A stretch of DNA of 63,804 nucleotides from Desulfobacterales bacterium (GCA_029940035.1 JAOZRT010000002.1:1-63804); one strand, 5' to 3'. Positions 10,741-62,754 are shown, counted from the stretch's first letter. A program made the numbers and translations. The notes: generated by a model not told the origin, from the sequence alone.

Positions 10741-10790
10741 GCAATCTTTTCCTTTTTGAACGGCAGCGAATGACTGCCTGTTTTAATGCA

Positions 10791-11945: not shown

Positions 11946-12127
11946 GTCTTGAATATTAAAGGAATTGCTTGAAAATCGCAATTTCTATCTTACCTTTACA
12001 AAAGCAGGCCTTAATGATAATTTTGTCAAAAACCAGCCATTGACAATCACGCGAATGCACAATCAACCAATAGTTGCCTGCTTTGCCATTCAAGGCCGAG
12101 CACAACGATTTATCCAGGAGCACAGAA

Positions 12128-12583
12128 ATGGACTATATCAAGATACGGTTCAGCAATGAATTCGAGAAGGTGCAATCCAAAGTCGAAAGCTCCATTGAAG
12201 ATATTTTCCGTTCCATCAACCCCCTGTTTTCACTGGATGAACGAACGTGGAAACCGCCCATGGACATCTATGAAACCACGGATAACATTATCATTCGTGC
12301 GGAAGTTGCCGGGGTGGACAAAGACATGTTGGAAGTCGAAATCAGCAGCCGGGCCGTAAAAATATTCGGTACCCGGCGGGAGCTGCCGCGTAGTGCCGGC
12401 GCCACCTACCGGTTGGCAGAAATCCAATACGGCAACTTTGAACGCATTCTCTATCTTCCGGCACTTATTGATACTGAAAACGTATCGACATCTTATGCCA
12501 ATGGGTTTCTTGAAGTCCGGCTTGCCAAACAGAAAACAGAAAAAGCCTATAAAATACCCGTATCGAGTAAAAAGAACGACTAA
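12128..12583 (+). CDS. Hsp20/alpha-crystallin family small heat-shock protein
   Basis: It carries an alpha-crystallin domain (WKPPMDIYETTDNIIIRAEVAGVDKDMLEVEI...LPALID...A.Y.NGFLEV.L.K). I prefer the ATG at 12128, which is preceded by AGGAG. The track ORF starts further upstream at 12074. Confidence 0.85.
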   Translation: MDYIKIRFSNEFEKVQSKVESSIEDIFRSINPLFSLDERTWKPPMDIYETTDNIIIRAEVAGVDKDMLEVEISSRAVKIFGTRRELPRSAGATYRLAEIQYGNFERILYLPALIDTENVSTSYANGFLEVRLAKQKTEKAYKIPVSSKKND

Positions 12584-12621
12584 AACAACAGCTTGTTACT
12601 AATGGAATAGTGGAGGACAAC

Positions 12622-14970
12622 ATGGATGATCAGAATACCGGTCTGGACTTCGATCCCGGCAAACTGCCTGAAGTGCTGCCCATATTGCCCCTGTATGATA
12701 CCGTCCTTTTCCCTAAAATGGTTCTGCCGCTTGTGGTCATGCAGCAGGAATCAGTGCAGTTAATCGACGATGCCATGTCCAATGACCGCATCATCGGACT
12801 GCTGGTTTCAAAAAACCCGTCAAGTGAAAAGCAGTCTTCCCATGAAGAACTGTACCGGATTGGAACCAGCGCCCTTATTCTGAAAATGGCCAAAACAGAC
12901 GACAACAAATCCCAAATCCTGGTTCAAGGCCTGTCCCGGTTCAAGGTGGCGGAGTTTGTCGGAGATAAACCCTACCTCATGGGCAATACAGACTACATCG
13001 AGGAAAAGGAGAAGAAGAATACGGAAACGGAAGCCTTGATGTCCAACATCATCCACCTCTTTTCCCGGGTTGTCGAGCTTTCACCTGTTCTGCCCCCTGA
13101 AATCAGTGCCATGGCCAAGTCGATCCAGGATCCGGGCACCCTGGCCAATATGGTTGCCTCGAGCATCAGCGCCACCGCGGAGGAGAAACAGAAGGTCCTC
13201 GAAGTCGACAGCGTCAAAAAGCGCCTCAAAGAAGTCATGCGGCTGGTCAACCACCAGCTTGAAGTGCTGGAGTTGGGCAACAAAATTCAATCCCAGGTCA
13301 AAGGCGACATGGACAAAAGCCAGCGCGAATACTACCTGCGGCAGCAGCTGAAGGCCATCCAGGAAGAACTGGGCGAAAAAGATGACACAGCCGTTGAAAT
13401 TGAAGAGTACCGGACTAAAATCCAGGAAAACAATCTGCCGGAGGAAGCGGTCAAAGAGGCTGAAAGAGAGCTGAAGAGGTTGTCAAAAATGCATCCCAGT
13501 TCTGCCGAATACACCGTGGCCTCAACCTATCTGGATTGGATGACCTCCCTGCCATGGGAAACGAGTACCAAGGACAACCTCGACATCAAAAAAGCCCGCA
13601 AATTGCTGGATGAAGATCATTTTGGTCTTGAAAAAGCCAAAAAAAGAATTATCGAATACCTGGCGGTCCGAAAACTGAAACCGGACTCCAAAGGGCCGAT
13701 CCTTTGTTTTGCGGGCCCTCCCGGAACAGGCAAAACATCACTGGGGAACTCCATTGCCCGAGCCTTGGGACGCGAATTTATCCGCCTTTCCCTGGGCGGC
13801 GTCAGGGATGAAGCCGAAATCAGGGGCCACCGGCGCACGTACGTTGGAGCGCTTCCCGGCCGGATTATCCAGGGCATCCGGCGGGCCGGGTCCAATAATC
13901 CCGTTTTTATACTTGACGAAATCGACAAGGTCGGTAGTGATTTCCGGGGAGACCCCTCTTCAGCCCTTTTGGAAGTTCTCGACCCGGAACAGAATTTTTC
14001 TTTTTCCGACCATTACCTGGACGTTCCGTTCGACCTTTCCAAGGTCATGTTCATCACCACTGCCAATGTTCTTGACACCATTCCGCCCGCACTGCGGGAC
14101 AGGATGGAGGTTATCCAGCTTTTGGGTTACACGGCCGATGAAAAAATAAAAATCGCCAACCGCTACCTTATCCCCCGCCAGCGTAAGGCCCATGGCCTGA
14201 AAGCGGACCAGATACGGTTCAGCAACGGGGCCGTAAAGTACATCATCACCGGCTATACCCGGGAAGCCGGGTTGCGTAACCTGGAACGTGAAATCGCCGC
14301 GGTCTGCCGGGGTGTGGCCAGCAGCATTGCGGAAGAAAAAACAACCGCCCAGAACATTAACGTGGTCAATCTTTCCAAATACCTGGGCCCGGTTAAAATC
14401 ATAGCGGAAACCAAAACACGTATCTCGACACCCGGCATCGCCAGGGGCCTGGCCTGGACACCCACCGGCGGTGAACTCCTGTTTATCGAGGCCACGGCTA
14501 TGAAAGGCCAAAAAGGCCTGACTCTCACCGGGCAGCTTGGGGATGTCATGAAAGAGTCCGCCACGACGGCGCTGAGCTATATCCGCACCAATGCGAAGGC
14601 CATGGGGATCGAAGAAGATTTTTTTGATAAGCATGACATCCATATTCACGTGCCGGCCGGAGCGATTCCAAAAGATGGCCCGTCTGCCGGGGTTACCATG
14701 CTGACCGCCTTGACGTCCCTATTGACCAACACCACCATCAAAAAGGACCTGGCCATGACCGGGGAAATTACCTTGCGAGGCCAGGTACTGCCCATAGGTG
14801 GGATCAAGGGAAAAGCCCTCGCCGCCCACAGGGCCGGCATTAAAACCATTATTCTGCCGAAATTGAACGAAAAGGACCTTGAAGAGCTGCCCAAAAAAGT
14901 TCTCAAGGATATCAAGTTTCATGCTGTGGATAAAATGGAAGATGTGCTGAAAATTGCACTCGAAAACTAA
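12622..14970 (+). CDS. lon: ATP-dependent Lon protease (endopeptidase La)
   Basis: It has a Lon N-domain, an AAA+ module (GPPGTGKTS Walker A, ILDEIDK Walker B) and a C-terminal protease domain with PKDGPSAG (catalytic Ser). The ATG at 12622 follows GGAGG. The track starts at the GTG at 12610. Confidence 0.95.
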   Translation: MDDQNTGLDFDPGKLPEVLPILPLYDTVLFPKMVLPLVVMQQESVQLIDDAMSNDRIIGLLVSKNPSSEKQSSHEELYRIGTSALILKMAKTDDNKSQILVQGLSRFKVAEFVGDKPYLMGNTDYIEEKEKKNTETEALMSNIIHLFSRVVELSPVLPPEISAMAKSIQDPGTLANMVASSISATAEEKQKVLEVDSVKKRLKEVMRLVNHQLEVLELGNKIQSQVKGDMDKSQREYYLRQQLKAIQEELGEKDDTAVEIEEYRTKIQENNLPEEAVKEAERELKRLSKMHPSSAEYTVASTYLDWMTSLPWETSTKDNLDIKKARKLLDEDHFGLEKAKKRIIEYLAVRKLKPDSKGPILCFAGPPGTGKTSLGNSIARALGREFIRLSLGGVRDEAEIRGHRRTYVGALPGRIIQGIRRAGSNNPVFILDEIDKVGSDFRGDPSSALLEVLDPEQNFSFSDHYLDVPFDLSKVMFITTANVLDTIPPALRDRMEVIQLLGYTADEKIKIANRYLIPRQRKAHGLKADQIRFSNGAVKYIITGYTREAGLRNLEREIAAVCRGVASSIAEEKTTAQNINVVNLSKYLGPVKIIAETKTRISTPGIARGLAWTPTGGELLFIEATAMKGQKGLTLTGQLGDVMKESATTALSYIRTNAKAMGIEEDFFDKHDIHIHVPAGAIPKDGPSAGVTMLTALTSLLTNTTIKKDLAMTGEITLRGQVLPIGGIKGKALAAHRAGIKTIILPKLNEKDLEELPKKVLKDIKFHAVDKMEDVLKIALEN

Positions 14971-15003
14971 AAAGGGCTGCGCTCTTTTTATAACAATGTT
15001 CAT

Positions 15004-15762
15004 GTGCGGAGTCTTGTGTTGAGAAGTAACACCAACAATTGGATGGTGCCTGTAATCCTGATGTGCCTGCTGTTGTTTGCGATCAGCAGCTGCAGTCAGC
15101 GCAGTCCGCAACCGGCGGCAAAGCCCGGTCAGCCCAAACCGTACCGCGTGGGCAAAATATGGTACTACCCGGTTTCGGATGCTTCCAACTTCAGGCAAAA
15201 GGGGAAGGCCTCCTGGTACGGCAAAAAATTCCACGGCAAAAAAACATCCTCCGGTGAAATCTATAACATGCACGCCATGTCCGCGGCCCATAAAACCCTG
15301 CCCCTGGGAACCTACGTCCGAGTTCACAACCTGGCTAACGGTAAATCCATTGAAGTCAGAATCAATGACCGCGGCCCATTTGTGCACGGCCGGATCATAG
15401 ACCTCTCCTATGCTGCCGCCACAAATCTGGACATTGTCGGACCGGGTACCGCACCAGTGGAAATCGTGGCCCTGGGAAAGGCCGGGGCATCAGACAGTGC
15501 ATCAGGCTATGTACCTGTGGATTATTATTCGGGGAATTTCACCTTCCAGGTTGGCGCCTTCAGCCAAAAAGAAAATGCCGTCCGCCTGAAACAAAAGCTC
15601 GAAGAAAAATATATGAACGTCCACATCATACCCTATGACGACGGCAAAAGAGTCATGTACCGGGTGCGTGTGGGCAAAGCCTCATCTTTAGAACAGGCTG
15701 AGGAGTATGAAAATATTCTGATACAACAGGGGTTTAATGGTGCCTTCATCGTCGCCGAATAG
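15004..15762 (+). CDS. rlpA: septal ring lytic transglycosylase RlpA family lipoprotein (DPBB + SPOR)
   Basis: It has a lipoprotein signal ending in AISSC and the DPBB core ASWYG..FHGKKT.SGE.Y......AAHKTLP.GT.V.V.N..NG.S..VRINDRGPF. The C-terminal SPOR domain reads FQVGAF...NA.....L. Confidence 0.9.
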   Translation: MRSLVLRSNTNNWMVPVILMCLLLFAISSCSQRSPQPAAKPGQPKPYRVGKIWYYPVSDASNFRQKGKASWYGKKFHGKKTSSGEIYNMHAMSAAHKTLPLGTYVRVHNLANGKSIEVRINDRGPFVHGRIIDLSYAAATNLDIVGPGTAPVEIVALGKAGASDSASGYVPVDYYSGNFTFQVGAFSQKENAVRLKQKLEEKYMNVHIIPYDDGKRVMYRVRVGKASSLEQAEEYENILIQQGFNGAFIVAE

Positions 15763-21575: not shown

Positions 21576-22694
21576 ATGGAGAGTAAAAGAGATTACTACG
21601 AGGTGTTGGGTGTAGATCGTTCCTCATCTGACATTGAAATTAAAAAAACCTACCGTAAGCTGGCCTTAAAATACCATCCCGACAAAAACCCCGGCAACCA
21701 GGAAGCTGAGGACAAGTTCAAGGAAGCTGCAGAAGCTTACGAAGTGCTCCGGGATGATAAAAAGCGCGGTATTTACGACCAGTATGGACACCAGGGACTG
21801 GAAGGCGCTGGATTTTCGGGTTTTGGAGGCTTTGACGATATTTTCTCCAGTTTCGGGGACATTTTTGAAGATTTTTTCGGGTTCAGTTCCAGTGGTCGTT
21901 CAGGCCGGAGCCGTGCCCAGAGAGGTACCGATCTCCGATATGATCTCTCCATCTCTTTCCTGGATGCGGCGTTTGGCACGGAAACCGAAATAGACGTGGA
22001 AAAAATGGAAACCTGCCCGACGTGCGAGGGCAGTGGCTGTGAACCGGGAACCTACTCTGAAACCTGCAGCAGCTGCAACGGCCACGGCCAGGTATCCAGG
22101 AGCCAGGGTTTCTTTACCGTGCGTACCACCTGCCCCAATTGTCGCGGCGCAGGGCAGACCATTGTCAGCCCCTGCAAAACCTGCCGAGGCGCCGGCCAGG
22201 TCAAAACCGGTAAAAAGGTCTCGGTCAAAATCCCGGGTGGTGTGGACACCGGGTCCCGGCTGCGCCTTTCAGGTGAGGGCGAGGTCGGACAACGTGGTGG
22301 ACCCAATGGAGATCTTTACATTTTCATCCACGTCCAACAGCATGAGTTCTTTGCCCGGAACAACACGGACATTGTCTGTGAAATCCCGGTCTCGTTTGTT
22401 CAGGCAACCCTGGGGGGTGAGATCAATGTACCCACCTTGGACGGTGAAAAGGCACTGAAAATACGCAAAGGAACCCAGCCTGGCGAGACTTACCGATTTC
22501 GTGCGGAAGGCATTCCATCGTTGAGGACCGGGAGAAGAGGGGATCAGATTATCCAGATTGCGGTAAAAACCCCCACCCATATTTCCAAAAAGCAGGAATC
22601 CCTGTTGCGGGAGTTCGCCAAGCTGGAAACCAACAGTATTTCTGACAAATTGAAAAATATTTTCAAGGGCGGCGCAGAGAGAGCCGCCCAATAG
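21576..22694 (+). CDS. dnaJ: molecular chaperone DnaJ (type I, canonical)
   Basis: The J domain has an intact HPD ([11 protein letters not shown]). A G/F-rich linker and four CxxCxGxG zinc-finger repeats ([32 protein letters not shown]) follow, then the C-terminal substrate domains. Confidence 0.95.
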
Positions 22695-52201: not shown

Positions 52202-52230
52202 CGGTTCATCCCCACGTGTGTGGGGAACAT
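52202..52230 (-). CRISPR. solitary type I-E-like CRISPR repeat
   Basis: The minus strand reads ATGTTCCCCACACACGTGGGGATGAACCG. This matches the I-E repeat architecture GTGTTCCCC-(loop)-GGGGATGAACCG, with a 7-bp GC stem (CCCCACA/CGTGGGG). It is a single copy lying exactly at the truncation point of cas3. Confidence 0.7.
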
Positions 52231-53498
52231 GTGCCAACGCCGACATCGGCCAACAAAGCCTTTTTCCGACTATCGGCCAGCCATGCGTGGCAATAAACCG
52301 TGGCGCTCAGCTCCTGTTCCCACTCATCATGGCCATCTGTGTAGTTCAGGTCGTCTGCTTGATTCTCCGGGAGACATACTGATTTACGAAACGCATTGGA
52401 TAGTTCCCGCGCTCCATGCGCCAATATCAATGAAGGTAGATCGCTGCTGCTTTCGTAAAAGCGGCGATATACTTCACCCACCCTCTTGTACATGGCATTG
52501 GCGGTGGCCATAGTTGGCAATGCCACATACAAACCATCCGCTAATCCTGCACTTAACAAACGGTGTGTCAGAATCAGAGCAGCTTCTGTTTTACCGGCAC
52601 CAGTGACATCTTCGAGAATAAAAAGTTGTGGTTTATCATTTAACTGTTCATTGATTGCGTATTCCTGTAATGGAGTCGGCTGTTTGATAAACGGGAACAG
52701 GTTGCTTAGACCTTGAAACCGGCTCGTTTTCGGCTTTGCGGGCATGGATTGGATCGATTTTTCTGCTAATGGCAGAGCGTGTTTAGACCAATAATCAGAC
52801 AACGCCTCCGGTTCGCTACAGTACTTGAAATAATCCTGGTTTGATCCTAGCCAATCCGCCAGCACTGTGATACCAGCCAGTTGCCAAGAGACGGTTTTCA
52901 GCCGTTGTTTCAAGCCGTTGTCTTGCAGAGCAGCATGATCAAACTCGGAGAGGAATAAACTGTGTATATTCCGTACAAAATGGCTGGCCGCCTCTTCATC
53001 TTCTATTTCAAATAAATTTGAAATTCGGCCACCTGATTTTTTCGGCGGCATGCCGTGATGACCCGTAACAATCTCCAGCCAACACTCAATTTTGCTCAGC
53101 CATTCACCGTTACCGGAAAGCTGTTTTTCAAGTTGAAGAGATAGACTCTCCCCCCATAACCAAAAGCCGAGGGTATCATGCCGCTCAGTATACTGCATCC
53201 TTGGGTTGGCCTTAACCAAATCAGGCGATAGATCTGTTTTCAACCCCTGAAAGGTTCTTGAAAATTTACCCATATCGTGAAGTGCCAAACAAAAGACGAA
53301 AAAGTCACGTAGCCAGCCCGGTTCAACCCCAAGCTGTTCTGCCACGCGAAAACAAAGCGATTTTTTGGGGTTTAGCAAAATCCACCCAACAGCCGCCACA
53401 TCCAAACAATGATATGGCAGCAGGTGATATGAAAAACTACCATCTTCGTTCTTTGAAACCTTCCCCCAATATTTGAAATAAGATGGATAATTGTCCAT
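52206..53498 (-). pseudogene. cas3: type I-E cas3, truncated after HD domain and helicase motif I
   Basis: 430-aa ORF. HD-domain signatures are present (YWGK, YHCLDVAAV, LHDMGKFSRTFQ, VTGHHG), along with LADWLGS, Walker A (TGAGKTEA) and LILAHG. The reading frame leaves cas3 sequence after ...LLADVGVGT (normally VGTIDQ). It then runs into the CRISPR repeat (CSPHTWG*). Roughly the C-terminal half of a normal ~900-aa Cas3 is absent. Confidence 0.85.
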
Positions 53499-53606
53499 TG
53501 TTAAGCTCCAGCGACCAAAGTGGACATAACGTATTGTTTTCTAATATCACCCGCATTTGACAGATGAGGTCAAACTTATCTTTTTTTTATAAAAACTTGG
53601 TTGTTT

Positions 53607-54045
53607 TTATAAAATCCCAAGAAAAAGTTCTGGATTCCCGCCTTCGCGGGAATGACGATTCAGTCTAAGTGCCTGCCGCTCTTTCTCTTTTGGAGACAAG
53701 ACTCCAATAAGTATGCTCAAAATATGAATTGCCCCGCCCACTCCGCTCAAAAAGGCCATCACACCCATCACCCGGCCTCCGATAAAGCCCGGTTTCGGCA
53801 ATGACGGCTGTGTCGCAGAAATAGCATGATCCGATTCGTTGCGGGTGATGGCAATAGCCCGATGGAGGGCCGTCCACTATCATCAAATTGTGGGGAGGTC
53901 CATAATAACGGCAGTTGGCGCAGCAACGGAACCGCTTATCGATGGGTGTATCTTGCCGGGCACGCTGGTACGCGGCAACGAGGGCCTTTATAAAATTTCT
54001 CGGGGTCGCCATGGGAGCACGACGTCTGCTGGGCGGTAATGCCAC
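53607..54045 (-). pseudogene. Cys-rich small protein gene, apparently frameshifted (Cys-rich N-part + TM C-part in different frames)
   Basis: The 53665..54045 ORF encodes ...RFRCCANCRYYGPPH...GYCHHPQRIGSCYFCD. The overlapping 53607..53801 ORF, in another frame, encodes a clean TM helix (VMGVMAFLSGVGGAIHILSILIGVL). No family is recognised, so it could also be two unrelated short ORFs. Confidence 0.3.
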
Positions 54046-54376
54046 AACACACCTCCACAGATGCTCGTATTTGCTTTCCGGTCGGGAGAAAACAAGATCT
54101 TATTTTGTAGGTAAAAAAGGTGGGACGAAACTATTTTTTAGCTGTTCTTCAAAAAACAGTCAAGTTTTTTTTTAAACCAAAGGATCATATTGCTTTACAA
54201 CATTGAGACTGGTCTTGAATCCATCGTTTCTTATTTGTCAGTAATGGGAATGTGCCCCACAAAAAATTCTTACAAATTGAGAATTCAATCAGCATATTGT
54301 AAAATTATTGTTGTCATTTTTACTGGTTCATGCCATATTCAGTTGAACCTTTGACTGGCAAACCAAGGAATAAAAA

Positions 54377-55555
54377 ATGGATATGATACCCAGAAAGGCT
54401 GCAAAAAAAACCCTGCAATATGCCGATCAATACCCGGTCATCACCATCACAGGCCCCAGGCAATCAGGAAAAACAACGCTTTGTAAAATGATTTTTCCCC
54501 AAAAGGACTATGTGTCCCTTGAGGACGTTGATGTGCGCAATTTCGCGCAGCAGGACCCTCGGGGATTTTTAAGCAGATTTCCCAAGGGGGCGGTGATTGA
54601 TGAAATTCAGCGCGTTCCCGACCTGCTGTCTTATATTCAAACCATTGTGGATCACAAACAGGAAGCCGGTTTTTTCATCCTCACCGGCAGTCAGCAATTT
54701 GAACTGTTGGAGGGAATATCCCAATCGTTGGCCGGACGAACCGCTCTTATGCGGCTATTGCCCTTAACGCTCAATGAGGCCTACACCGACAAAAAAGCCG
54801 ATATTTCGCTTGAAAAGGTTCTCTGGACCGGGTTTTACCCCCGGATTTTCGATAAAAAACTGAACCCGACGGAAGCGATGCTTTTTTATGTCAACACCTA
54901 TGTGGAACGAGATCTGCGCATGCTGATCAATATTAAGGACCTCTCCAAGTTTGAAATATTTCTCAAACTCTGTGCCGGCAGGACAGGGCAGATACTCAAC
55001 CTTTCAAGCCTCGGCAATGATTGCGGGATTAACCATACGACAGCCAAAAGTTGGATCTCCGTCTTGGAAGCCAGCTACATCATTAAATTGCTGCGTCCTT
55101 ATTATAAAAATTTCAATAAGCGACTCGTTAAATCACCCAAGCTCTATTTTCTGGACACCGGCCTGGCTTCATTTTTGTTGAATATTCAAAATAAGACCCA
55201 AATGGCCACCCACCCTCTCAAGGGCGCGTTGTTCGAAAGCTTCATCATATCAGAAACCCTGAAACATCGTTTTAATTCGGGGAAAACAGACAATCTTTAC
55301 TATTTCAGGGACAATATCGGCAATGAAGTCGATTTAGTCTGCGATCATGGTATAAATCTGGATGCCGTAGAAATCAAGTCCGGCCAGACCATTGCGTCAG
55401 ATCACTTCAAAGGTCTGAAATACCTTAATAAACTTACAGATTCAATCCGGAATTCTCATGTCGTGTATGGCGGTGACAAGTCCTATGTTATGAACAATGT
55501 AAACGTTGTGAGCTGGAAGCAGCTCCATTCAAATTTGGGCATCAGCAAGGACTAA
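54377..55555 (+). CDS. AAA-family ATPase with C-terminal DUF4143-type domain
   Basis: 392-aa ORF with Walker A (ITGPRQSGKTTL) and Walker B (AVIDEIQRVPDL). The overall layout is that of the AAA_14 + DUF4143 family, which is frequent in variable genome regions. Confidence 0.8.
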   Translation: MDMIPRKAAKKTLQYADQYPVITITGPRQSGKTTLCKMIFPQKDYVSLEDVDVRNFAQQDPRGFLSRFPKGAVIDEIQRVPDLLSYIQTIVDHKQEAGFFILTGSQQFELLEGISQSLAGRTALMRLLPLTLNEAYTDKKADISLEKVLWTGFYPRIFDKKLNPTEAMLFYVNTYVERDLRMLINIKDLSKFEIFLKLCAGRTGQILNLSSLGNDCGINHTTAKSWISVLEASYIIKLLRPYYKNFNKRLVKSPKLYFLDTGLASFLLNIQNKTQMATHPLKGALFESFIISETLKHRFNSGKTDNLYYFRDNIGNEVDLVCDHGINLDAVEIKSGQTIASDHFKGLKYLNKLTDSIRNSHVVYGGDKSYVMNNVNVVSWKQLHSNLGISKD

Positions 55556-55638
55556 CAGCTTGAATTGTGAATAAAAATGAGTTCCTTTACAATCTGCCTG
55601 GATTAAAACACTATGCACCAACATGTAGCGATTTTCTA

Positions 55639-55667
55639 TTGACACCCTACCACGCGCTTTGTATTTT
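55639..55667 (+). promoter_or_regulatory. putative sigma70-type promoter of the Hsp70 cassette
   Basis: The -35 is TTGACA (55639-55644), followed by a 17-nt spacer and a -10 of TATTTT (55662-55667). It lies about 40 nt upstream of the 828-aa ORF start. Confidence 0.3.
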
Positions 55668-55705
55668 TCGGCTCTTACCGAATTGTAAATCAGCTTGGAT
55701 GGCAT

Positions 55706-58192
55706 ATGGGAAAGAAAAAAAAGAAAAATCGAAGGAACCGCAAAAAGCCGGTATCTACTGAAACCCTTCAAAAATCGGCCGATGCTCATTTGCGCGCAGG
55801 CCGTTACCGACAGGCCAAGGGTCTATTTAAACAGCTGTGCAAACAACACCGGGATAAATACCTCCCCGGGCTTGTTGAATCATGCCGCCGTCTGTTTCAC
55901 CTGTTGCTGGACCAGGAAAAAGTTAGGGATGCGAAGACCGTTTTGACATCGCTTGAAAACATCACCGATCCTCCAAAACTGTATCCCGAAGTGGTTCGGC
56001 TGGCCATGGCTGAAGAAAACTATTCCCAGGCTGCAGGTATTGCGGTAGAGGCGCTTGCCGGCCGTGAGCCTCCTTTTACCGAAAGCGAATTATTGTTGGG
56101 GGATGCTCTGGTCATTGCGTTTGAAGATATGGATCGATCAATTCCCTTGCCCTCGCCTTTGCAGACCGATATCACCCGCATCCAGTCATCGTTAGCCGCT
56201 GTTGCGCAAGAACGATACACGGATGCGCTGTCTTCGATCCGACCGATGGGAATGCGCTCCCTCTTTGCCCCATGGAAGTGGTTTATCAAGGGTATTTGTG
56301 CATTCTATACCCACGATGATGCAAGAGCCGGAAAAGCTTTCGAAAAAATTTTCCCGGGGACGGTACCCGCTAAGGCCGCCAAAGCGTTTCTGATGATTCT
56401 TAAAGAGGCAGGATGGCTTGCAACAGAGCACAAGAAAATCGATTTACTGAGTGATATCTGCCATTTGGCGGGAGATGAAAAACTCGCTGGTTGTCTGCCC
56501 CGGGCGGAATACCTATGGCGGGTGGGAAGACACCGGGACTCGTATAAGCACCTGCGATCCAGGCTGGATGATTTTCCTTCGCAAAAACCCGGGATGCAAC
56601 GATCCCTGACCACTTTTTATTTCAATGCCATAACGGATATGGAGGACATGCCGTTAGGAAAGTACTTTGATTTTCTTTTCGATCTCGCTCTGCAAAAAGG
56701 GAAAAAAAGAGGTTTTGAAAAACTGCAGGCAAGCCGGTCCTTGGCGCTTTCCTTTGAAACCGATCCGTATGCAGATAGAGAAATACTGCAGGAATGGGAG
56801 TCCTTTTTATTCGCCTACCAGCAGCACCATGGTAGAAACAAACGTGTTGAGGCCGCCGTATATGCCCATTTGGGCGACCTCTATTCCATGGAGGACCTTG
56901 AAGATGCAATGATCCCTTTCTTTTTTTCCCAACGGAATCGCCGGGGGACGGCACTGAAAAACGAAACCCTGGCGGAAAACTGTTATCGAAAAGCCCTAGT
57001 GTATCACCCGGAAAACGTGAAGGCCCATTTTTCCCTCTTGGAACTCTATGAAAAGACCAACCAGAAAGCAATGGTCAATAAAACGCTGGATGACATCATT
57101 AAACGGTTTCCTGGTGAAAAAAAGAGCCTCTATAAAGCCGGACTGCGATGCCTCGAAAGAAACGCGCTGATCAAAGGCTTGAAATACCTTGAGCAGGCCT
57201 TGAACCTTGACCCCCTCGACAGCACGCTCAGGACGTATTTTATCATTGCCTGTATCAAAGCCGGCTTGAGGTATGCCCAAAAAGGGGCTATGGAAAAATG
57301 TCGGGACCTGCTGGCCATAGCCCTGGAGCGGGCTCAGGGGCAATCCGAAGATTTCAACCGTGGCCAGGCATACCTGTTTGCGCGGTGGGCGACTTTCGAA
57401 TGGCTGGCCGGAAATGAGAAAGAAGGCGCAAAACTCAAGCTGCAGGCCCTTGATCTGTGTGGCAGCAAATTGAAGCTTCACTGTTTTTTGTGGGTCATGG
57501 GTCACATTTACGGAGTCCCGGACAGATATTTGAAGGAGCATGGAAGCATCCTGGATGACATATACTCCAGACAACCTGCGTCCGGCCCCGCGGCAGAACT
57601 CGTTGAAACTTTCAGCTACATTCGTCAAATCCCATCCAAACATTCCTGGATAAAAAGGGAAATGGTACGATTGAACAGATATTTGCAGGAAATCCTTGAG
57701 AAGGGTGTTTCCAGAGAGGTCGCCGCTAAGGTGATCGAATACGGCCTTGAAGGAACAAGAGACGATCAGGGTGTTGCCCGGAAATATATCGCCAAAATGC
57801 TCAAACTGCATCCGGACGATGCGAAAATGCGAATGTTCCGGTATCTGTCCCGGCAACAATGGGGGCTGGACTACCAAAACCCCGCAGGAAATCTGGAGGA
57901 ACTGCGGATTATCTTGGGCCTTGCGGAAAAGCAGGGGGAACGGGATTTTGCCTCCCGTGTGCGCCAGGCAATAAGGAAAGCTGAAAATGCCTTATCATTG
58001 ATGGAGTCTTTCGGCATGCCCACCGAAGAGGAATGGTTTGACGATGACGACGAGGAGGATGATGGCTTTGACCCATTTTCCCCGCCTGCAAAGGAGGGCA
58101 ATCGAGAATCTCAAAAAAAATTCTCGAACAGGGATTCGAAGTCTACACCATCTAAAAAGAGCCGCAATCGGCAGCTCGACCTATTTGAATGA
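55706..58192 (+). CDS. 828-aa all-helical TPR-like scaffold protein with poly-basic N-terminus and acidic/basic C-terminal tail
   Basis: It is a long uninterrupted ORF. The N-terminus reads MGKKKKKNRRNRKKP. TPR-like helix pairs occur throughout (e.g. AENCYRKALVYHPENVKAHFSLLELYEKTNQKAM, LKYLEQALNLDPLDSTL). The C-terminus reads EEEWFDDDDEEDDGFDPF...SKKSRNRQLDLFE. It is the first gene of a tightly packed five-gene operon. Confidence 0.75.
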   Translation: MGKKKKKNRRNRKKPVSTETLQKSADAHLRAGRYRQAKGLFKQLCKQHRDKYLPGLVESCRRLFHLLLDQEKVRDAKTVLTSLENITDPPKLYPEVVRLAMAEENYSQAAGIAVEALAGREPPFTESELLLGDALVIAFEDMDRSIPLPSPLQTDITRIQSSLAAVAQERYTDALSSIRPMGMRSLFAPWKWFIKGICAFYTHDDARAGKAFEKIFPGTVPAKAAKAFLMILKEAGWLATEHKKIDLLSDICHLAGDEKLAGCLPRAEYLWRVGRHRDSYKHLRSRLDDFPSQKPGMQRSLTTFYFNAITDMEDMPLGKYFDFLFDLALQKGKKRGFEKLQASRSLALSFETDPYADREILQEWESFLFAYQQHHGRNKRVEAAVYAHLGDLYSMEDLEDAMIPFFFSQRNRRGTALKNETLAENCYRKALVYHPENVKAHFSLLELYEKTNQKAMVNKTLDDIIKRFPGEKKSLYKAGLRCLERNALIKGLKYLEQALNLDPLDSTLRTYFIIACIKAGLRYAQKGAMEKCRDLLAIALERAQGQSEDFNRGQAYLFARWATFEWLAGNEKEGAKLKLQALDLCGSKLKLHCFLWVMGHIYGVPDRYLKEHGSILDDIYSRQPASGPAAELVETFSYIRQIPSKHSWIKREMVRLNRYLQEILEKGVSREVAAKVIEYGLEGTRDDQGVARKYIAKMLKLHPDDAKMRMFRYLSRQQWGLDYQNPAGNLEELRIILGLAEKQGERDFASRVRQAIRKAENALSLMESFGMPTEEEWFDDDDEEDDGFDPFSPPAKEGNRESQKKFSNRDSKSTPSKKSRNRQLDLFE

Positions 58193-58214
58193 TAATGCCC
58201 ATGGAGTAGAACCT

Positions 58215-58517
58215 ATGAACCCTTACGATGTTTTGGACATCCCATGTGATGCAGATGATTCGGCTGTGCGGAGCGCCTATCTCGAACTGATCAAGATTTA
58301 TTCACCGGAGCAGTTTCCGAAGCAATTCAAACAGGTCAGCGAAGCCTATCATACTTTGAAGAACGAAGACCAGCGGCTGCAATATGATTTGTTTAATCGA
58401 AATACCGGTATTGGATCGCCCTTCGAGGTCTTGCTGGACGGCTTCACCCTACGTAAACGAACGCCCGTAAAATTTGGGGCCATGCAAAGGTATCTGAGGC
58501 AATGCGCGAAAAAATAG
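58215..58517 (+). CDS. small J-domain-like protein with degenerate HPD motif (SPE)
   Basis: The ATG at 58215 follows GGAG by 8 nt. NPYDVLDIPCDADDSAVRSAYLELIKIYSPEQFP...QVSEAYHTLKNEDQRLQYD aligns helix for helix with the canonical J domain at 21576 (DYYEVLGV...[14 protein letters not shown]...EAYEVL.D..KR..YD). The HPD motif is replaced by SPE (58302-58310). Confidence 0.7.
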   Translation: MNPYDVLDIPCDADDSAVRSAYLELIKIYSPEQFPKQFKQVSEAYHTLKNEDQRLQYDLFNRNTGIGSPFEVLLDGFTLRKRTPVKFGAMQRYLRQCAKK

Positions 58518-59242
58518 ATGAAAATGAACAACGGACGGGCCGAGAACGTACCCCTAATGCTGAAAACCGTCCTCCAACCAGCAGCGGGAGGAAAACATGG
58601 AAAGCCCTGCTGGTCCGGAATTTCAAACGGTGGGTTAACGAGGTGGATTCATGGCCAATACGGCAGGACCCTGTCCCCGATCCACCTGATCTTTATTCCT
58701 TTTATGAAGAACTCTGCGTATTGCGTGGCGAAGTACGCAAGGATGCCCGTCGAAACCATGATGCATTTACCCGCTTTAATGATGCATTGAATGATTTTCA
58801 CACGATGGTAAAACCGCTGGTTCAGTCGACCCGGCGGATTGAAAAAGAGGATTTGAAGCATGGCCACGTTGGTGGGGTTTCGCATAGAGAACTATTTATG
58901 CCCCTTGTGGAGTTAATTGAGAGAGTAAAGCGTATAGAAATGAAATTTTCCAAACCACCGGAAACCGGCTTTTTCCCCTCACGGAAAAAATGGCTGGCAG
59001 AATGGGAGACGCTGAGTCAAGGCATTGTGATAATAAGAGACCACTTCGAACAGCTGCTGCAAGGTCATGGTATCACGGCGATGCACACCCTTTCCAAACC
59101 ATTTGATCCAGCGTGCATGAAAGCCGTAGAAATTGTTACTTCCGAATCCGTTGAACCCAATACTGTCGTCGAGGAAAGCGCAGGTGGGTACCTTTATAAC
59201 GACCAGGTTATCAAATTTGCCGAGGTCAAAGTGGCTGGGTGA
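58502..59242 (+). CDS. GrpE-like nucleotide-exchange factor homolog
   Basis: 246-aa ORF overlapping the J-like gene by 16 nt. The N-terminal half is helical. The C-terminal beta-domain pattern is G(I)....L..PFDP....AVE.V.......NTVVEE...GY.....VI+.AEVKVA, as in GrpE, with the usual His of FDP..H replaced by Met. Confidence 0.65.
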   Translation: MREKIDENEQRTGRERTPNAENRPPTSSGRKTWKALLVRNFKRWVNEVDSWPIRQDPVPDPPDLYSFYEELCVLRGEVRKDARRNHDAFTRFNDALNDFHTMVKPLVQSTRRIEKEDLKHGHVGGVSHRELFMPLVELIERVKRIEMKFSKPPETGFFPSRKKWLAEWETLSQGIVIIRDHFEQLLQGHGITAMHTLSKPFDPACMKAVEIVTSESVEPNTVVEESAGGYLYNDQVIKFAEVKVAG

Positions 59243-59256
59243 AAAGGAAATAAAAG

Positions 59257-60987
59257 ATGAGTATTTGCATAGGAATCGATCTGGGGACCACCAACTCCGA
59301 AGTTGCCGTGGTTAATGATGGTCAGCCGGAAATTGTCCCGGTAGAAGGAAGTTCGGTGATGCCCTCTTGTGTCGGACTCGATGCAAAAAGGAATTTGATC
59401 GTCGGTACGACAGCCAAAAATCAGATGATTGTCAGACCCGATGCGACGATTCTTTCCATTAAAAGGAAAATGGGGGAAAGCGCCAAGGTCGGCCTGGGGG
59501 ATCAAAAGCTGGCACCGGAGGAGATATCCGCTTTAATCCTTAAGAAACTAAAACATGCCGCTGAAAAATATCTTGGAGAAAAAGTTGACCGGGCAGTGAT
59601 AACGGTGCCGGCTTATTTCGACGACGCCCAGAGGAAAGCTACCCGAAATGCCGGAATTCTAGCTGGACTTGATGTTGCCAGAATTATCAACGAACCCACT
59701 GCCGCCGCGCTGGCTTACGACGCAAATCTTGAAACCGATGAGACGGTTCTGGTTTATGACCTCGGTGGTGGAACGTTCGATGTTTCATTGGTTGTCGTTG
59801 AAAACGGTGTGGTGGAGGTGAAAGCCAGTCATGGCGACACGCACCTTGGCGGTGATGATTTTGACAACCTGCTTATGGAACATGTTTCCGGCCGGTTCCA
59901 GGCGCAATACGATATCAACCTTATGGATGATAAGGCCACCCGCAACCGCCTGTGGTCCGCAGTGGAATCCGGGAAACGGCAATTGTCCAACGCCCCTTAC
60001 GCACAAATCCGGGAAGAATTCATCCATGGCGATCATCATCTCGACCTGGAGATATCGCGCCTGGACTACGAGGATATGATTCGTCCCCTTGTCCAAAAGA
60101 CAATGGATTCCGTCCATCAATGCCTGAAAGATGGCACCATGCTGCCGGGAGCTGTAGACCGGGTCATACTCGTCGGTGGCGCATCCCGTACTCCGCTCGT
60201 CACGGAAATGATACAAAATGCCTTCAGAATCGAACCCCGGCATGAAATCAATCCCGATCTCATTGTGGCAATGGGCGCGGCGATACAAGGGGGGGCACTC
60301 TCCGGAAAGAAAACCCGGTCCATCTTGGTGGATATTACCCCTTACACTTTTGGGACCAGTGCCGTGTCAATGCATGAGGGGGATCTTCGACCCGATGTGT
60401 TTGTACCGATTATCCGCCGCAATACCCCCCTGCCTGTGGAAAAAAGTGATGTTTTTGCCACCATGATTCACGCCCAGGAAGCCGTTGATGTGCAGATCTA
60501 TCAAGGGGAGGCGCCCATCACCGATGAGAATATTTTTATCGGAAATTTTCTCATCGAGGGGTTGGGCAATGTGCCGGCCGGAAACCAAATTGTACTGAAC
60601 CTGTCCCTGGATCTCAACGGTATCCTTCAGGTGACGGCCGTTGAAAAATGCACGGGTTTATCCAAATCCGTTCGCATGGAAATCGATTCTGATAAAATGA
60701 CATTCGACTTGGATCAGGCAGAAAAAAACCTTAACGCATTCATCGATGAGGGTGCTGCCCGCGATGATGAAAAAGGCGGCGCGAGCACAAAACCGGATTT
60801 GCTTTCCCGGGCGAAAAGGCTTCGGAAGCGGGTATTGGACCTTGTCGATCATGTGGATGAAACCGATAGAGAGGAGCTGCGCGCCCTCGTCGATAAGAGT
60901 AAAAAAGCAGTAACCTCCGGGGACGATGTCGTCCTTGCGGAGCTGAACGAATCATTGAGCGATATGCTTTTTTATCTGGAGGATTGA
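59257..60987 (+). CDS. Hsp70 family protein (non-DnaK paralog, 576 aa)
   Basis: It has phosphate-1 (GIDLGTTNS), phosphate-2 (DLGGGTFDVS), the adenosine motif (LVGGASRTPLV), an interdomain linker (LVDITPYTFG), and a canonical beta-sandwich substrate-binding domain. The helical lid is short and the protein ends ...DMLFYLED. Confidence 0.9.
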   Translation: MSICIGIDLGTTNSEVAVVNDGQPEIVPVEGSSVMPSCVGLDAKRNLIVGTTAKNQMIVRPDATILSIKRKMGESAKVGLGDQKLAPEEISALILKKLKHAAEKYLGEKVDRAVITVPAYFDDAQRKATRNAGILAGLDVARIINEPTAAALAYDANLETDETVLVYDLGGGTFDVSLVVVENGVVEVKASHGDTHLGGDDFDNLLMEHVSGRFQAQYDINLMDDKATRNRLWSAVESGKRQLSNAPYAQIREEFIHGDHHLDLEISRLDYEDMIRPLVQKTMDSVHQCLKDGTMLPGAVDRVILVGGASRTPLVTEMIQNAFRIEPRHEINPDLIVAMGAAIQGGALSGKKTRSILVDITPYTFGTSAVSMHEGDLRPDVFVPIIRRNTPLPVEKSDVFATMIHAQEAVDVQIYQGEAPITDENIFIGNFLIEGLGNVPAGNQIVLNLSLDLNGILQVTAVEKCTGLSKSVRMEIDSDKMTFDLDQAEKNLNAFIDEGAARDDEKGGASTKPDLLSRAKRLRKRVLDLVDHVDETDREELRALVDKSKKAVTSGDDVVLAELNESLSDMLFYLED

Positions 60988-61316
60988 TGCAAATCCTTTG
61001 TCCGGCATGTAAAAAGCTAAATGACTCGGCGGATAAATGCAATCGTTGCGGTGGAAATCTGTCCGATTTAAGACGAATACGCCGGGCCGCTGTTGAAGAA
61101 TTGAAACTCGGCAAAAGGCATCTTCTACGAATGAATGCCGAGAAAGCCCTGCTGAGCGCCAAATCGTCATGGCGGTTGAAAAAAAGTGCTTCTGCCGCAA
61201 AACTGGCCTTTTTGGCAAGCCTGATGGGAGGGCATTTTTCCGAAGCCACCCGGTGGTACAGTATGGCAGCCGCAGGCGGCAATTCGGCCCCTGCCCGGAA
61301 TACAGACTGTTCATGA
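60987..61316 (+). CDS. zinc-ribbon protein (CPAC-x9-CNRC) with helical tail
   Basis: Its ATG overlaps the Hsp70 stop (TGATG at 60985-60989), indicating translational coupling. The N-terminus is MQILCPACKKLNDSADKCNRCGG. The last ~10 codons run into an SNF2 gene fragment, so the native C-terminus may be lost. Confidence 0.6.
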   Translation: MQILCPACKKLNDSADKCNRCGGNLSDLRRIRRAAVEELKLGKRHLLRMNAEKALLSAKSSWRLKKSASAAKLAFLASLMGGHFSEATRWYSMAAAGGNSAPARNTDCS

Positions 61317-61450
61317 CCACCAATGCCGGTGCCACTGGTTTAAACCTGCATGCCGCCTATACCGTCATCAACCTTGACCTTCCCTGGAACCCAGCAGTCC
61401 TCGAGCAACGCATCGGCCGGGTTCATCGCGGTCGATCTTTTTCTGCTTGA
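61293..61450 (+). pseudogene. orphan SNF2-family helicase fragment (motifs V-VI only)
   Basis: It encodes PEYRLFMTTNAGATGLNLHAAYTVINLDLPWNPAVLEQRIGRVHR, paralogous to 62095-62235 of the neighbouring SNF2 remnant. There is no upstream ATPase domain, and it ends after ~50 codons. Confidence 0.75.
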
Positions 61451-61620
61451 ACGGTGATTGTGGAGGTTGCTCATCAATATCAATCGCCTTGATGAAAATA
61501 TCCCAGCATACACATATCAATGGGCGAGAAAAATCAATTGAATTAATCAATTTCATCAGACATACTGCGCACGATTAAGCGCTGTGTAACCCACTAAAAA
61601 ATAGATACGGATTGAAAACT

Positions 61621-62754
61621 ATGATCAACTTAAAAGATAAACTCTCGCACCTTTCATTTATCCAGGCCTGCAAACTCTTGGGGCCCCAGGGCAAAGATCA
61701 CCTCATCCAGGGCGGAATGTGGGACGTCGATCTGGAGGAACAGGTGATCTTAAAAAGGGATCTTTTTCATCTCGATCTCGGGGAAGCCGGCGTGACCCTT
61801 CGCCTGGACCCTGCCAAAAATCATAAAATTGACATCTCATGCAGTGTCTGCCCGGTGTATTGTGACCATCAGGGAGCCGCTCTATCTTTAATCCTTGAAG
61901 AAAAACTGGCCCTGGGCCTTGCCGCACCACCCAAGGAACGCGTGCCCATCGAAAGCCTCAGTGACAGCGAGCTTGTGGCCCATGCTGAACCTGATTGAGC
62001 AGTTTCTGACGGAACGACAGGTTAATTATGTGCGGTTGGATGGAAGCGTTCCCCAGAAAAAGCGGCAGGGCCTGGTGCACCAATTCCAGAAAAATCCTGA
62101 ATGCAGACTGTTCGTGACCACCAATGCCGGTGCTACCGGCTTAAATCTGCAGGCCGCCAACACGGTGATCAATGTGGACCTGCCGTGGAACCCGGCAATT
62201 CTCGAACAGCGCATCGGCCGGGCCCACCGGATGGGTCAGAAAAGACCAGTGCAGGTGTTTGTCCTGGTTACCGAAAAAACCCTTGAAGAAAGCCTGCTGA
62301 ACACCCTCGCCTCCAAACACGCTCTGTCCATGGCCGCCCTTGATCTGGAGTCCGATGTATCTGAAGTCAATCTTGTCAGCGGAATTGATGAGCTGAAACA
62401 ACGCCTTGAAGTTCTGATCGGTCAAAAACCAGATGCCGCGGTTGATGAAAGCCAAAAACCCATGTCGAAAAAGAAGCCGCACTTCTGGCCAGAAAGAAAA
62501 AAGTCGCTTTGGCAGGGGGGCAGATGATCAGCGCTGCCTTCAACTTTCTCGGTGAATTGTTTCCCCGGATAGAAGCATCCGAAAAAACCCTTTCGGCAAC
62601 CGACGCCTTTAAGCAAAAACTGTCTGAGGGAATGGAACGGGGAGTGGACGGCAGTTTGAAAATGACAATTGCTTTTCCCGATGAAAAAGCCCTGGACAAC
62701 CTTGCCAACACACTGGCCCAGATGGTTGGTTCGACCACAACCGACAACTCATAA
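61621..62754 (+). pseudogene. SWIM-zinc-finger SNF2-family helicase with internal deletion and frameshifts
   Basis: The N-terminal ~120 aa carry a SWIM-like CxCx(n)CxH motif (CSVCPVYCDHQGAA). Near 61980 this joins, in a different frame, directly to the helicase C-terminal domain (MLNLIEQFL...LDGS...LFVTTNAGATGLNLQAANTVINVDLPWNPAILEQRIGRAHRMGQ). The whole SNF2_N ATPase lobe is missing. A further frame change lies near 62500. Confidence 0.75.

Follow-up and report, generated by a model that had tools for sequence, protein, structure and literature searches.

A conserved five-gene Hsp70 cassette of Desulfobacterota and Acidobacteriota whose TPR scaffold carries a clamp-type terminal motif

What function is served by an Hsp70 that is encoded outside the housekeeping chaperone operon, between genes for a large tetratricopeptide repeat (TPR) protein and a small zinc-ribbon protein, is the question raised by positions 55706-61316 of a 63,804-nucleotide (nt) stretch of DNA from a Desulfobacterales bacterium (GCA_029940035.1, JAOZRT010000002.1:1-63804; the whole of this stretch is called the window below). 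Five genes encode, in order, a TPR scaffold, a J-like protein without the histidine of the HPD tripeptide, a GrpE-like protein, an Hsp70 paralog and a zinc-ribbon protein. The cassette is an ancient operon that has been kept by vertical descent in Desulfobacterota and Acidobacteriota, and it probably encodes a dedicated Hsp70 machine with a role other than defence. The combined reading, in which this machine remodels proteins on a TPR platform recruited to the sliding clamp DnaN, is regarded as about an even call. The parts (Hsp70, J fold, GrpE, TPR) are of known kinds; what is new is their fixed combination, the family-wide J-domain without His, the invariant tail of the Hsp70 and the clamp-type motif of the scaffold, and the last three of these were missing from the preliminary description of the locus.

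The unit consists of five tightly packed open reading frames (ORFs) on one strand, with products given in amino acids (aa):

55706-58192, plus strand: TPR gene, 828 aa, a helical TPR solenoid scaffold
58215-58517, plus strand: J-like gene, 100 aa, with GGAG about 10 nt upstream
58502-59242, plus strand: GrpE-like gene, 246 aa
59257-60987, plus strand: Hsp70 gene, 576 aa
60987-61316, plus strand: zinc-ribbon gene, 109 aa

A 22-nt gap separates the TPR and J-like genes, the J-like and GrpE-like genes overlap by 16 nt, a 14-nt gap precedes the Hsp70 gene, and the hsp70 stop overlaps the zinc-ribbon start in the sequence TGATG at 60985-60989. The preliminary description had this packing and every junction right; it was also right in calling the J-like gene HPD-less, and wrong by one residue in giving its product 101 aa, the real length being 100 aa. 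Of the profile searches it recommended for the five proteins, those with HSP70, DnaJ, GrpE and TPR gave matches, and the zinc ribbon scored below the cut-off.

The limits of the unit are set by comparison with close relatives. Because homology with them is confined to 55605-61300, the unit comprises a promoter-like region and the five genes:

55605-61300, plus strand: DNA homology block common to close relatives (blastn; 90% for locus L028, 84-88% for locus L004), with differing flanks
55639-55667, plus strand: promoter-like site TTGACA-17-TATTTT, a 10/12 match, upstream of the TPR gene

Homology with L028 spans the full block, and that with L004 begins at window position 55621. Both hexamers of the promoter-like site are kept in the two relatives, and the sequence further upstream diverges; a scan for promoters and terminators gave region-wide counts that did not exceed shuffled expectation, and only the conservation of this one site is informative. 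All five genes are under purifying selection, with ratios of nonsynonymous to synonymous substitution (dN/dS) of 0.17-0.46 against the two close relatives. Scans of the whole 63.8-kb window (1-63804) found neither a tRNA gene nor, at the gathering threshold, any Rfam family.

The same composition recurs far beyond this genome. Loci were gathered via contig look-ups, a scan of species-representative genomes and a metagenome scan seeded with the distant high-GC (guanine-cytosine) subfamily, and the TPR family was searched exhaustively by profile among 50%-identity cluster representatives (E<=1e-30). The outcome is a large, clean family of 539 scaffold representatives across two phyla with a fixed five-part composition; the best 150 of the 539 are nearly all full-length, and full-length scaffold homologs of 800-860 aa occur in metagenome-assembled genomes of Desulfobacterales and Syntrophales. 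Every one of the 52 loci with at least two cassette genes is colinear (TPR-J-GrpE-Hsp70-ZnR), 34 of them holding all five genes and the remainder being cut by contig ends, and no cassette gene is missing in any of the 52 where the contig continues; in L027 and L043, which seemed to lack the zinc-ribbon gene, the ORF is present, having been overlooked by the gene call in the first and by the tblastn screen in the second. When flanking ORFs were clustered over 43 non-redundant locus groups, no family appeared in more than four groups, and the cassette therefore has no sixth component. The cassette of the window belongs to a low-to-medium-GC clade with the depositor labels Desulfobacterales, Desulfatitalea, Desulfococcaceae and Syntrophales, and a second clade with a GC content of 0.58-0.62 carries all five genes in an identical order. 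Co-occurrence of the five genes outside this genome had been proposed as a check in the preliminary description, and its view of a dedicated, self-contained, non-housekeeping Hsp70 module under selection is upheld by this order in all 52 loci, by the dN/dS values and by the failure of the Hsp70 to reach the cut-offs for DnaK and HscA.

The Hsp70 itself belongs to the superfamily (Pfam HSP70, PF00012, 486 bits against a cut-off of 20.6), and its best match in the PDB is Geobacillus DnaK (E 1e-121). It has a complete nucleotide-binding domain (NBD), the interdomain linker ILVDITP, the substrate-binding domain's beta part (SBD-beta) plus a short lid, and it carries the ATPase motifs GIDLGTTNS, DLGGGTFD and VGGASRTP, all intact as first described. 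Scores for the DnaK equivalogs are too low (NF001413, 520.2 against 648 bits; TIGR02350, 519.7 against 822.55 bits), as is that for the HscA equivalog (TIGR01991, 414 against 708.55 bits). The identity of the protein with E. coli DnaK is only 36-37%, against 52-59% between the Hsp70s of the two clades. Like Gram-positive DnaK, it is without the insert of about 24 aa found in E. coli-type DnaK (residues ~72-76); in addition, there is an 8-aa insertion in the first loop of SBD-beta (residues ~368-380), and Met takes the place of the arch residue A429. The absent insert, the added loop residues and the A429M exchange suggest an old origin and an altered client specificity. Because the equivalog cut-offs are not reached, the DnaK insert is absent, the SBD loop is extended and the two clades are closer to each other than to DnaK, the Hsp70 is placed, on sequence grounds, in a distinct subfamily that is neither DnaK nor HscA nor a housekeeping chaperone.

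These properties bear on the idea that the cassette is a stress-backup DnaK paralog, a duplicated DnaK-DnaJ-GrpE set that widens general proteostasis in large genomes. Paralogs of DnaK are frequent in Acidobacteria and some Deltaproteobacteria and correlate with proteome size (PMC11019930), and the complete ATPase and substrate-binding domains of the Hsp70 would suit such a role; its distance from E. coli DnaK, its scores below the DnaK equivalog cut-offs and a J partner without His, client-binding domains or zinc-finger domain do not. The obligatory linkage to TPR (830-aa) and zinc-ribbon proteins and the invariant terminal motifs indicate a specific job and not a generic backup, and a backup function is considered very improbable.

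What that job could be is suggested chiefly by the scaffold. Its Pfam matches (TPR_14 with 34 bits against a cut-off of 23.5, and also TPR_16) identify it as a TPR solenoid, and the AlphaFold2 (AF2) model is a single continuous, all-alpha helical solenoid over residues 18-768, with a mean predicted local distance difference test score (pLDDT) of 83. Foldseek returned only generic TPR scaffolds for this model (IFT-A, Naa15, Ski3, APC subunits; E 1e-7 to 1e-5). A DnaJ match inside the scaffold (residues 681-706, 'KLHPDD', E 0.069) was rejected as an ordinary TPR loop of the form LxxxPDD, in which P703 and D705 are conserved and the His is not. The informative parts of the protein lie at its two ends:

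55709-55750, plus strand: polybasic N-terminus GKKKKKNRRNRKKP, conserved among low-GC members and lacking from the high-GC clade
58028-58189, plus strand: disordered C-terminal tail, residues 775-828 (AF2 pLDDT <50)
58172-58186, plus strand: QLDLF, residues 823-827, a sequence match to the beta sliding-clamp-binding motif

The tail runs from an acidic stretch through a basic stretch to the end QLDLF-E, and among relatives it is unalignable apart from this terminal motif. Residues Q823, L826 and F827 are invariant among close relatives (alignment A2). A pentapeptide Q-x-[DNSAG]-[LFM]-F, 0-7 residues from the C-terminus, is present in 37 of 45 close family members, to which the QLELF of L009 can be added beyond the strict matches, and in 83 of 141 distant representatives, the high-GC clade typically ending in ...DPNQLDLF-COOH; near the C-termini of the 624 other ORFs of the same loci it does not occur once. 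Across the family, positions 1, 4 and 5 are fixed as Q, L/F and F, position 2 is free and position 3 is D, N, S or E. The published beta-clamp consensus is QL[S/D]LF, generalised as Q-phi-x-L-F, in which positions 1, 4 and 5 are critical, and clamp binding has been demonstrated experimentally for QLDLF, QLNLF, QLELF and QLSFF. The pentapeptide also lies where it does in DnaN partners, within a terminal disordered segment (pLDDT <50). The conservation pattern in these tails is the one that clamp binding predicts, and that the tail truly binds the sliding clamp is held to be slightly short of an even prospect.

Some scaffold tails (P0026, P0027, P0029, P0031; P0219, P0230, P0291) end in ...DD(x)nPF-COOH or QxELPF-COOH; these ends resemble the C-terminal tip of SSB (DDDIPF) and the hexapeptide clamp motif (QLSLPL type).

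The same terminal motif can be read as belonging to a client-specific chaperone with no link to DNA, in which the TPR platform is an assembly scaffold or a client and the terminal motifs make internal contacts; as a variant, QLDLF could be captured by the substrate-binding domain of the Hsp70 or be autoinhibitory in the TPR groove. DnaK prefers peptides with a Leu/Phe core flanked by basic residues, a preference that the basic residues around the Leu/Phe core of the tail would suit. The altered substrate-binding loops (the 8-aa insertion and A429M) suggest narrow specificity, HscA-HscB is a precedent for an Hsp70 with one client, no replication gene is found in the neighbourhoods and some clades are without the motif. 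Against this stand the invariant Gln and the pattern of positions 1, 4 and 5 with a free position 2, which are specific to clamp motifs, as Hsp70 binding predicts no such pattern and disfavours the Asp in the core; moreover, the distance of the motif to the C-terminus varies, which argues against recognition of a free carboxylate and against capture by a carboxylate clamp. A purely client-specific role is rated as unlikely, though it is the main competitor to clamp recruitment.

A second terminal motif, on the Hsp70, and a second TPR-like protein, encoded next to it, suggest how the machine might be held together:

60961-60984, plus strand: invariant C-terminal tail DMLFYLED-COOH of the Hsp70 (homolog clusters and locus sequences)
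60999-61049, plus strand: zinc ribbon CPAC-x9-CNRCG at the N-terminus of the small protein (Pfam zinc ribbon below cut-off)

The last six residues of the Hsp70 are LFYLED in 116 of 120 homolog clusters, the other four having FFLED, YYLED and, twice, LFYLEE, and [LI]FYLED stands at the extreme C-terminus in all 30 locus-derived Hsp70s of both clades. In the small protein, the CxxC-x9-CxxC ribbon that had been noted at first sight is present as CPAC-x9-CNRC, with a profile score that stays below threshold. Its AF2 model (pLDDT 81.5) has four helices over residues 26-97, this helical part matches two TPR units (a mini-TPR), and Foldseek gives weak similarity (E 0.07-0.4) to the TPR domains by which Hip, CHIP, Sgt2 and Hop bind Hsp70 tails; a basic patch, SWRLKK...AAKLAF, is invariant. 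The gene follows hsp70 in every locus that extends far enough, and its start, overlapping the hsp70 stop in the window, lies within about 30 nt of it in the other loci examined. In the window, the ORF keeps the whole of its conserved region (to about residue 99); the junction with an SNF2 fragment near 61300 replaces just the variable last 7-10 or so residues. Truncation of the gene by this junction was rejected for the conserved part, since only the variable end differs from the 116-aa close relatives.

The two remaining partners of the Hsp70 are recognisable and altered. The J-like protein has a J fold (Pfam DnaJ, PF00226, 44.8 bits against a cut-off of 27.8, profile positions 1-63). The HPD tripeptide in the loop between helices II and III of a J-domain is needed to stimulate the Hsp70 ATPase, and its place is taken here by another tripeptide:

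58302-58310, plus strand: SPE at the HPD position of the J-like protein, residues 30-32 (from the alignment)

Among 41 unique orthologs, this position reads PPE in 26, SPE in five, SPD in five, PPD in four and TPD in one. None of the 41 carries His, a loss that is ancient and selected, not a product of decay. The loop between helices II and III is six residues shorter than that of DnaJ, and a C-terminal extension of about 35 aa (SPFE..., YLRQCA) is conserved. On the side of the Hsp70, equivalents of DnaK residues R167, N170, E171 and T173 are retained. In DnaK, R167, N170 and T173 receive the J-domain; with their equivalents and the linker kept, the cassette Hsp70 could therefore still respond to a canonical J-domain. 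The GrpE-like protein matches Pfam GrpE (PF01025) with 71.8 bits against a cut-off of 25.8, and the match covers only residues 167-245 (profile positions 86-164), that is, the C-terminal domain; the NCBIfam GrpE equivalogs all score far below their cut-offs (best 39.8 against 137 bits). Its N-terminal part is divergent and family-specific, with a conserved helix PPDLYSFF..L..LR.E.RK..RR, and what the protein keeps is the C-terminal beta domain, with which GrpE contacts the NBD of an Hsp70.

A canonical type I dnaJ with an intact HPD (KYHPDKN) was correctly reported at 21576 in the window. The gene (21576-22694, plus strand) encodes a J domain, a CXXCXGXG zinc-finger domain and a C-terminal domain, and it is a solitary gene preceded by genes for an SH3-domain protein and a nadB-like flavoprotein, with no dnaK or grpE beside it.

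Taken together, these features can be arranged into a mechanism. The TPR platform would be recruited to DNA-loaded DnaN clamps through its C-terminal QLDLF, and in the low-GC clade the basic N- and C-terminal stretches of the platform may aid this recruitment. The Hsp70 would dock on one of the two TPR proteins via LFYLED-COOH, as EEVD tails do on eukaryotic TPR co-chaperones, and the zinc-ribbon/mini-TPR protein, whose start overlaps the hsp70 stop, is the prime candidate for an adaptor or escort of the Hsp70. The GrpE-like protein would reset the nucleotide state of the Hsp70. At the J site, the J-like protein without His would tether or gate the Hsp70 in place of canonical ATPase stimulation; the source of that stimulation may be the platform or the housekeeping DnaJ. 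The machine would then use ATP to remodel or remove proteins bound at clamp-marked (replicating or repaired) DNA. The founding functions of DnaK lay likewise in the remodelling of replication complexes (lambda O/P-DnaB, P1 RepA).

Several points weigh against this interpretation, in particular against its clamp component. About one fifth of the close and some 40% of the distant scaffolds have no strict motif match. Truncation or a variant motif accounts for some of them, and the scaffolds of one subclade (L003, L013, L014, L026) end in a basic tail instead, so that the core function cannot depend on clamp docking. The clamp link hinges on a motif of five residues, however well conserved, and a peptide with basic residues around a Leu/Phe core could also act as an element resembling an Hsp70 substrate. 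Over the 43 locus groups, no replication or repair gene recurs beside the cassette, and the window holds no dnaN, nor any other dnaK or grpE. Docking of the Hsp70 tail on the TPR proteins is argued from analogy, and the Foldseek list in which Hip, CHIP, Sgt2 and Hop appear mixes in designed consensus and generic TPRs. The taxonomy of the high-GC clade comes from a single label, P0036 (= L035), Acidobacteriota. Lastly, a separate canonical dnaK elsewhere in the genome is something we infer, because a stand-alone dnaJ lies in the window, paralogs are frequent in the relevant lineages and dnaK is near-universal (98.9% of bacteria; PMC11019930).

Whether the surroundings of the cassette speak for defence is a further question, since the preliminary description had suggested a defence or conflict system on the argument that the cassette is, with a DUF4143 ATPase, the only intact cargo of an island of broken defence genes. 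Read in this way, the cassette would sense or remodel phage or plasmid proteins, perhaps via clamps on invading DNA. In the window it does lie between a truncated cas3, the DUF4143 ATPase (PDC-S01) and SNF2 fragments, and the broken state of cas3 and SNF2 was correctly described; this pattern is, however, particular to this genome and its close relatives. Other loci add a TOTE-type primase-helicase and an SbcC/JetD-like gene (L009) and toxin-antitoxin modules (L024), DUF4143 lies nearby in four of 43 groups, the compared loci have different flanking genes, as would be expected from mobility and from long-term rearrangement alike, and Hsp70, GrpE and DnaJ/TPR components do occur in GTPase-centred conflict systems (PMC7159879).

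Most neighbourhoods, however, are made up of genes of core metabolism or translation. Typical flanks are rpsB-tsf-frr with pyk-pgi, panC-metK-ahcY, rho and eno, and carB; others include aldehyde dehydrogenases with a PAS sensor, ABC transporters, SufBD and RNase G, and lactate racemase, glycerate kinase, a GH2 glycosidase, oxidoreductases and KaiC. Only a minority of loci have defence or mobile genes close by, namely the window, L004 (two DUF4143 genes), L009, L017 (DUF4143), L024 (toxin-antitoxin modules and DUF4143) and L008 and L019 (insertion sequence elements), and these frequencies look like background for large environmental genomes, as judged without a formal enrichment figure. Searches of PADLOC-DB v2 returned no match for the J-like, GrpE-like and zinc-ribbon proteins and only chance-level ones for the two others, PrimPol with the TPR protein (E 0.0037) and a partial PDC-M61B match with the Hsp70 (E 6e-5). 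Scaffold homologs are absent from 72,556 plasmids, 50,697 phage genomes and the IMG/VR viral contigs, and none of the five proteins has an effector-type domain (nuclease, pore, NADase or similar). With no effector, no recurrent sixth gene and no linked GTPase, a defence function is thought improbable. The preliminary description had itself stated that core positions of homologous cassettes with no enrichment near defence or mobile genes would speak against its claim, and this is essentially the distribution found; a defence call derived from one genome's neighbourhood is thereby corrected as unsupported guilt-by-association, and a dedicated machine outside defence is the reading retained.

The neighbouring genes merit description in their own right. 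The DUF4143/AAA_14 ATPase gene (54377-55555, plus strand) is intact and matches the PADLOC candidate PDC-S01 with an E-value of 1e-101; different paralogs with 30-39% identity lie near the cassette in L004 (two copies), L017 and L024, in varying position and strand. As a sixth component it was rejected, given that L028 has another upstream ORF and that the paralogs are so weakly identical, and it is not part of the unit because the homology block starts about 50 nt after its end. The cas3 gene (52206-53498, minus strand) is cut to its HD domain and the first 70 or so residues of the DEAD helicase domain. In the window and in L004, the cassette is preceded by a 114-bp fragment of the cas3 5' end and a 126-aa Cys-rich ORF (window 53665-54045, minus strand, no Pfam match); in the 90% identical L028 the two lie downstream of it instead, a permuted order that points to recombination around the cassette. 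The regions with the cas3 fragment and the Cys-rich ORF are:

window 53110-54171
L028 6135-6661
L004 883-1342

On the other side of the cassette, the SNF2 helicase gene (61612-62527) is internally deleted or frameshifted, and a fragment of its helicase-C part is duplicated with 83% identity (61295-61421 and 62096-62222), one copy abutting the end of the zinc-ribbon gene. In L009, positions 10380-15546, directly downstream of the cassette, encode a 976-aa AEP-TOTE primase-helicase-PLD protein and an SbcC/JetD-like protein, a genuine defence neighbourhood that is not recurrent. Upstream of the cassette, three locus groups drawn from both clades (L003/L026, L013 and L043) have a CHASE2-adenylate/guanylate cyclase gene, in L043 at a distance of only 143 nt, an arrangement that may be due to chance.

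Several known systems share features with the cassette. In the literature, no description was found of the five-gene architecture, of a link between an Hsp70/TPR assembly and the clamp or of a matching Hsp70-based defence system, and bacterial derivatives of DnaK have been called largely unexplored 'dark matter' (2026 review, PMC13580251). With the canonical DnaK-DnaJ-GrpE system, the cassette shares the ATPase motifs, the linker, SBD-beta, a GrpE-type domain, a partner with a J fold and operon linkage. It differs in an Hsp70 that stays below the equivalog cut-offs and has a short lid and the LFYLED tail, in a J protein of 100 aa with no His and no Gly/Phe, zinc-finger or client-binding domains, and in the addition of two obligatory TPR proteins. 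HscA-HscB, the Hsp70 system dedicated to Fe-S clusters, is similar in concept, its specialised Hsp70 serving a narrow range of clients with the help of a minimal J partner; HscB, however, keeps its HPD, HscA needs no GrpE, and the cassette has no isc context.

Two further systems also combine GrpE with an Hsp70. A related lineage, that of Myxococcus xanthus, has in grpS-sglK (MXAN_6672-MxDnaK2) a second GrpE-Hsp70 operon whose role lies outside heat shock, but MxDnaK2 belongs to DnaK proper (PRK00290 class, 62% identity with the E. coli protein), and its two-gene operon has no TPR, J-like or zinc-ribbon genes. The conflict systems centred on GAP1-N2 GTPases (Kaur et al. 2020, PMC7159879) combine HSP70, GrpE and DnaJ- or TPR-fused FNIII proteins and so, as the cassette does, bring Hsp70, GrpE and J-domain or TPR components into one neighbourhood. 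They have the GTPase at their core, joined by FNIII-repeat proteins, and come from Actinobacteria and Firmicutes (PMC7159879), whereas among the Pfam-annotated neighbours of the cassette there is no linked GAP1-N2 GTPase or FNIII protein and no recurrent flank family.

The scaffold tail finds its counterpart among the binders of the beta clamp (Pol II/IV/V, PolC, MutS, Hda, CrfC, transposases, MuC of phage Mu), which also carry a terminal QL[D/N/S]LF on a disordered tail; its QLDLF-type motif is identical to the clamp consensus and to the motifs that Pol Y1 and Pol Y2 carry. The clamp partners known so far, in contrast, include no TPR scaffold and no chaperone component. If recruitment takes place as proposed, chaperone delivery would add protein remodelling to the activities organised by DnaN, and the cassette would be the first prokaryotic Hsp70 machine physically targeted to the sliding clamp, with its Hsp70 held by an EEVD-like tail and using ATP to strip or remodel proteins at clamp-marked DNA, a claim that is put forward as tentative.

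The remaining parallels are eukaryotic. The co-chaperones Hop, CHIP, Hip and SGT resemble the cassette in that an invariant acidic Hsp70 C-terminus occurs alongside dedicated TPR proteins; the cassette departs from them in the sequence of its tail (LFYLED), in being bacterial and operon-encoded and in a small protein of about two TPR units, compared with three in the classical clamp. Should the tail be read in this manner, bacteria would possess TPR co-chaperones that read the C-terminal tail of an Hsp70, a wiring thought of as eukaryotic. The composition of the cassette also recalls, by analogy only, the mitochondrial import motor (mtHsp70-Mge1-Pam18-Pam16-Tim44 with Hep1/Zim17). In that motor, Mge1 is the exchange factor, Pam16 an HPD-less J-like protein, Tim44 the scaffold that positions the Hsp70 and Hep1 a small zinc-binding escort. 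There is no homology between the two beyond the Hsp70, GrpE and J folds; the cassette has no active J partner with an HPD, its scaffold is a TPR protein and not Tim44-like, and its zinc ribbon is not a DNL-type finger. If the proposed arrangement is true, a J-domain without His would act as a tether or gate, as Pam16 does, and the cassette would be a bacterial counterpart of both the TPR co-chaperone wiring and a scaffold-anchored Hsp70 motor of the kind formed with Tim44, Pam16, Mge1 and Hep1.

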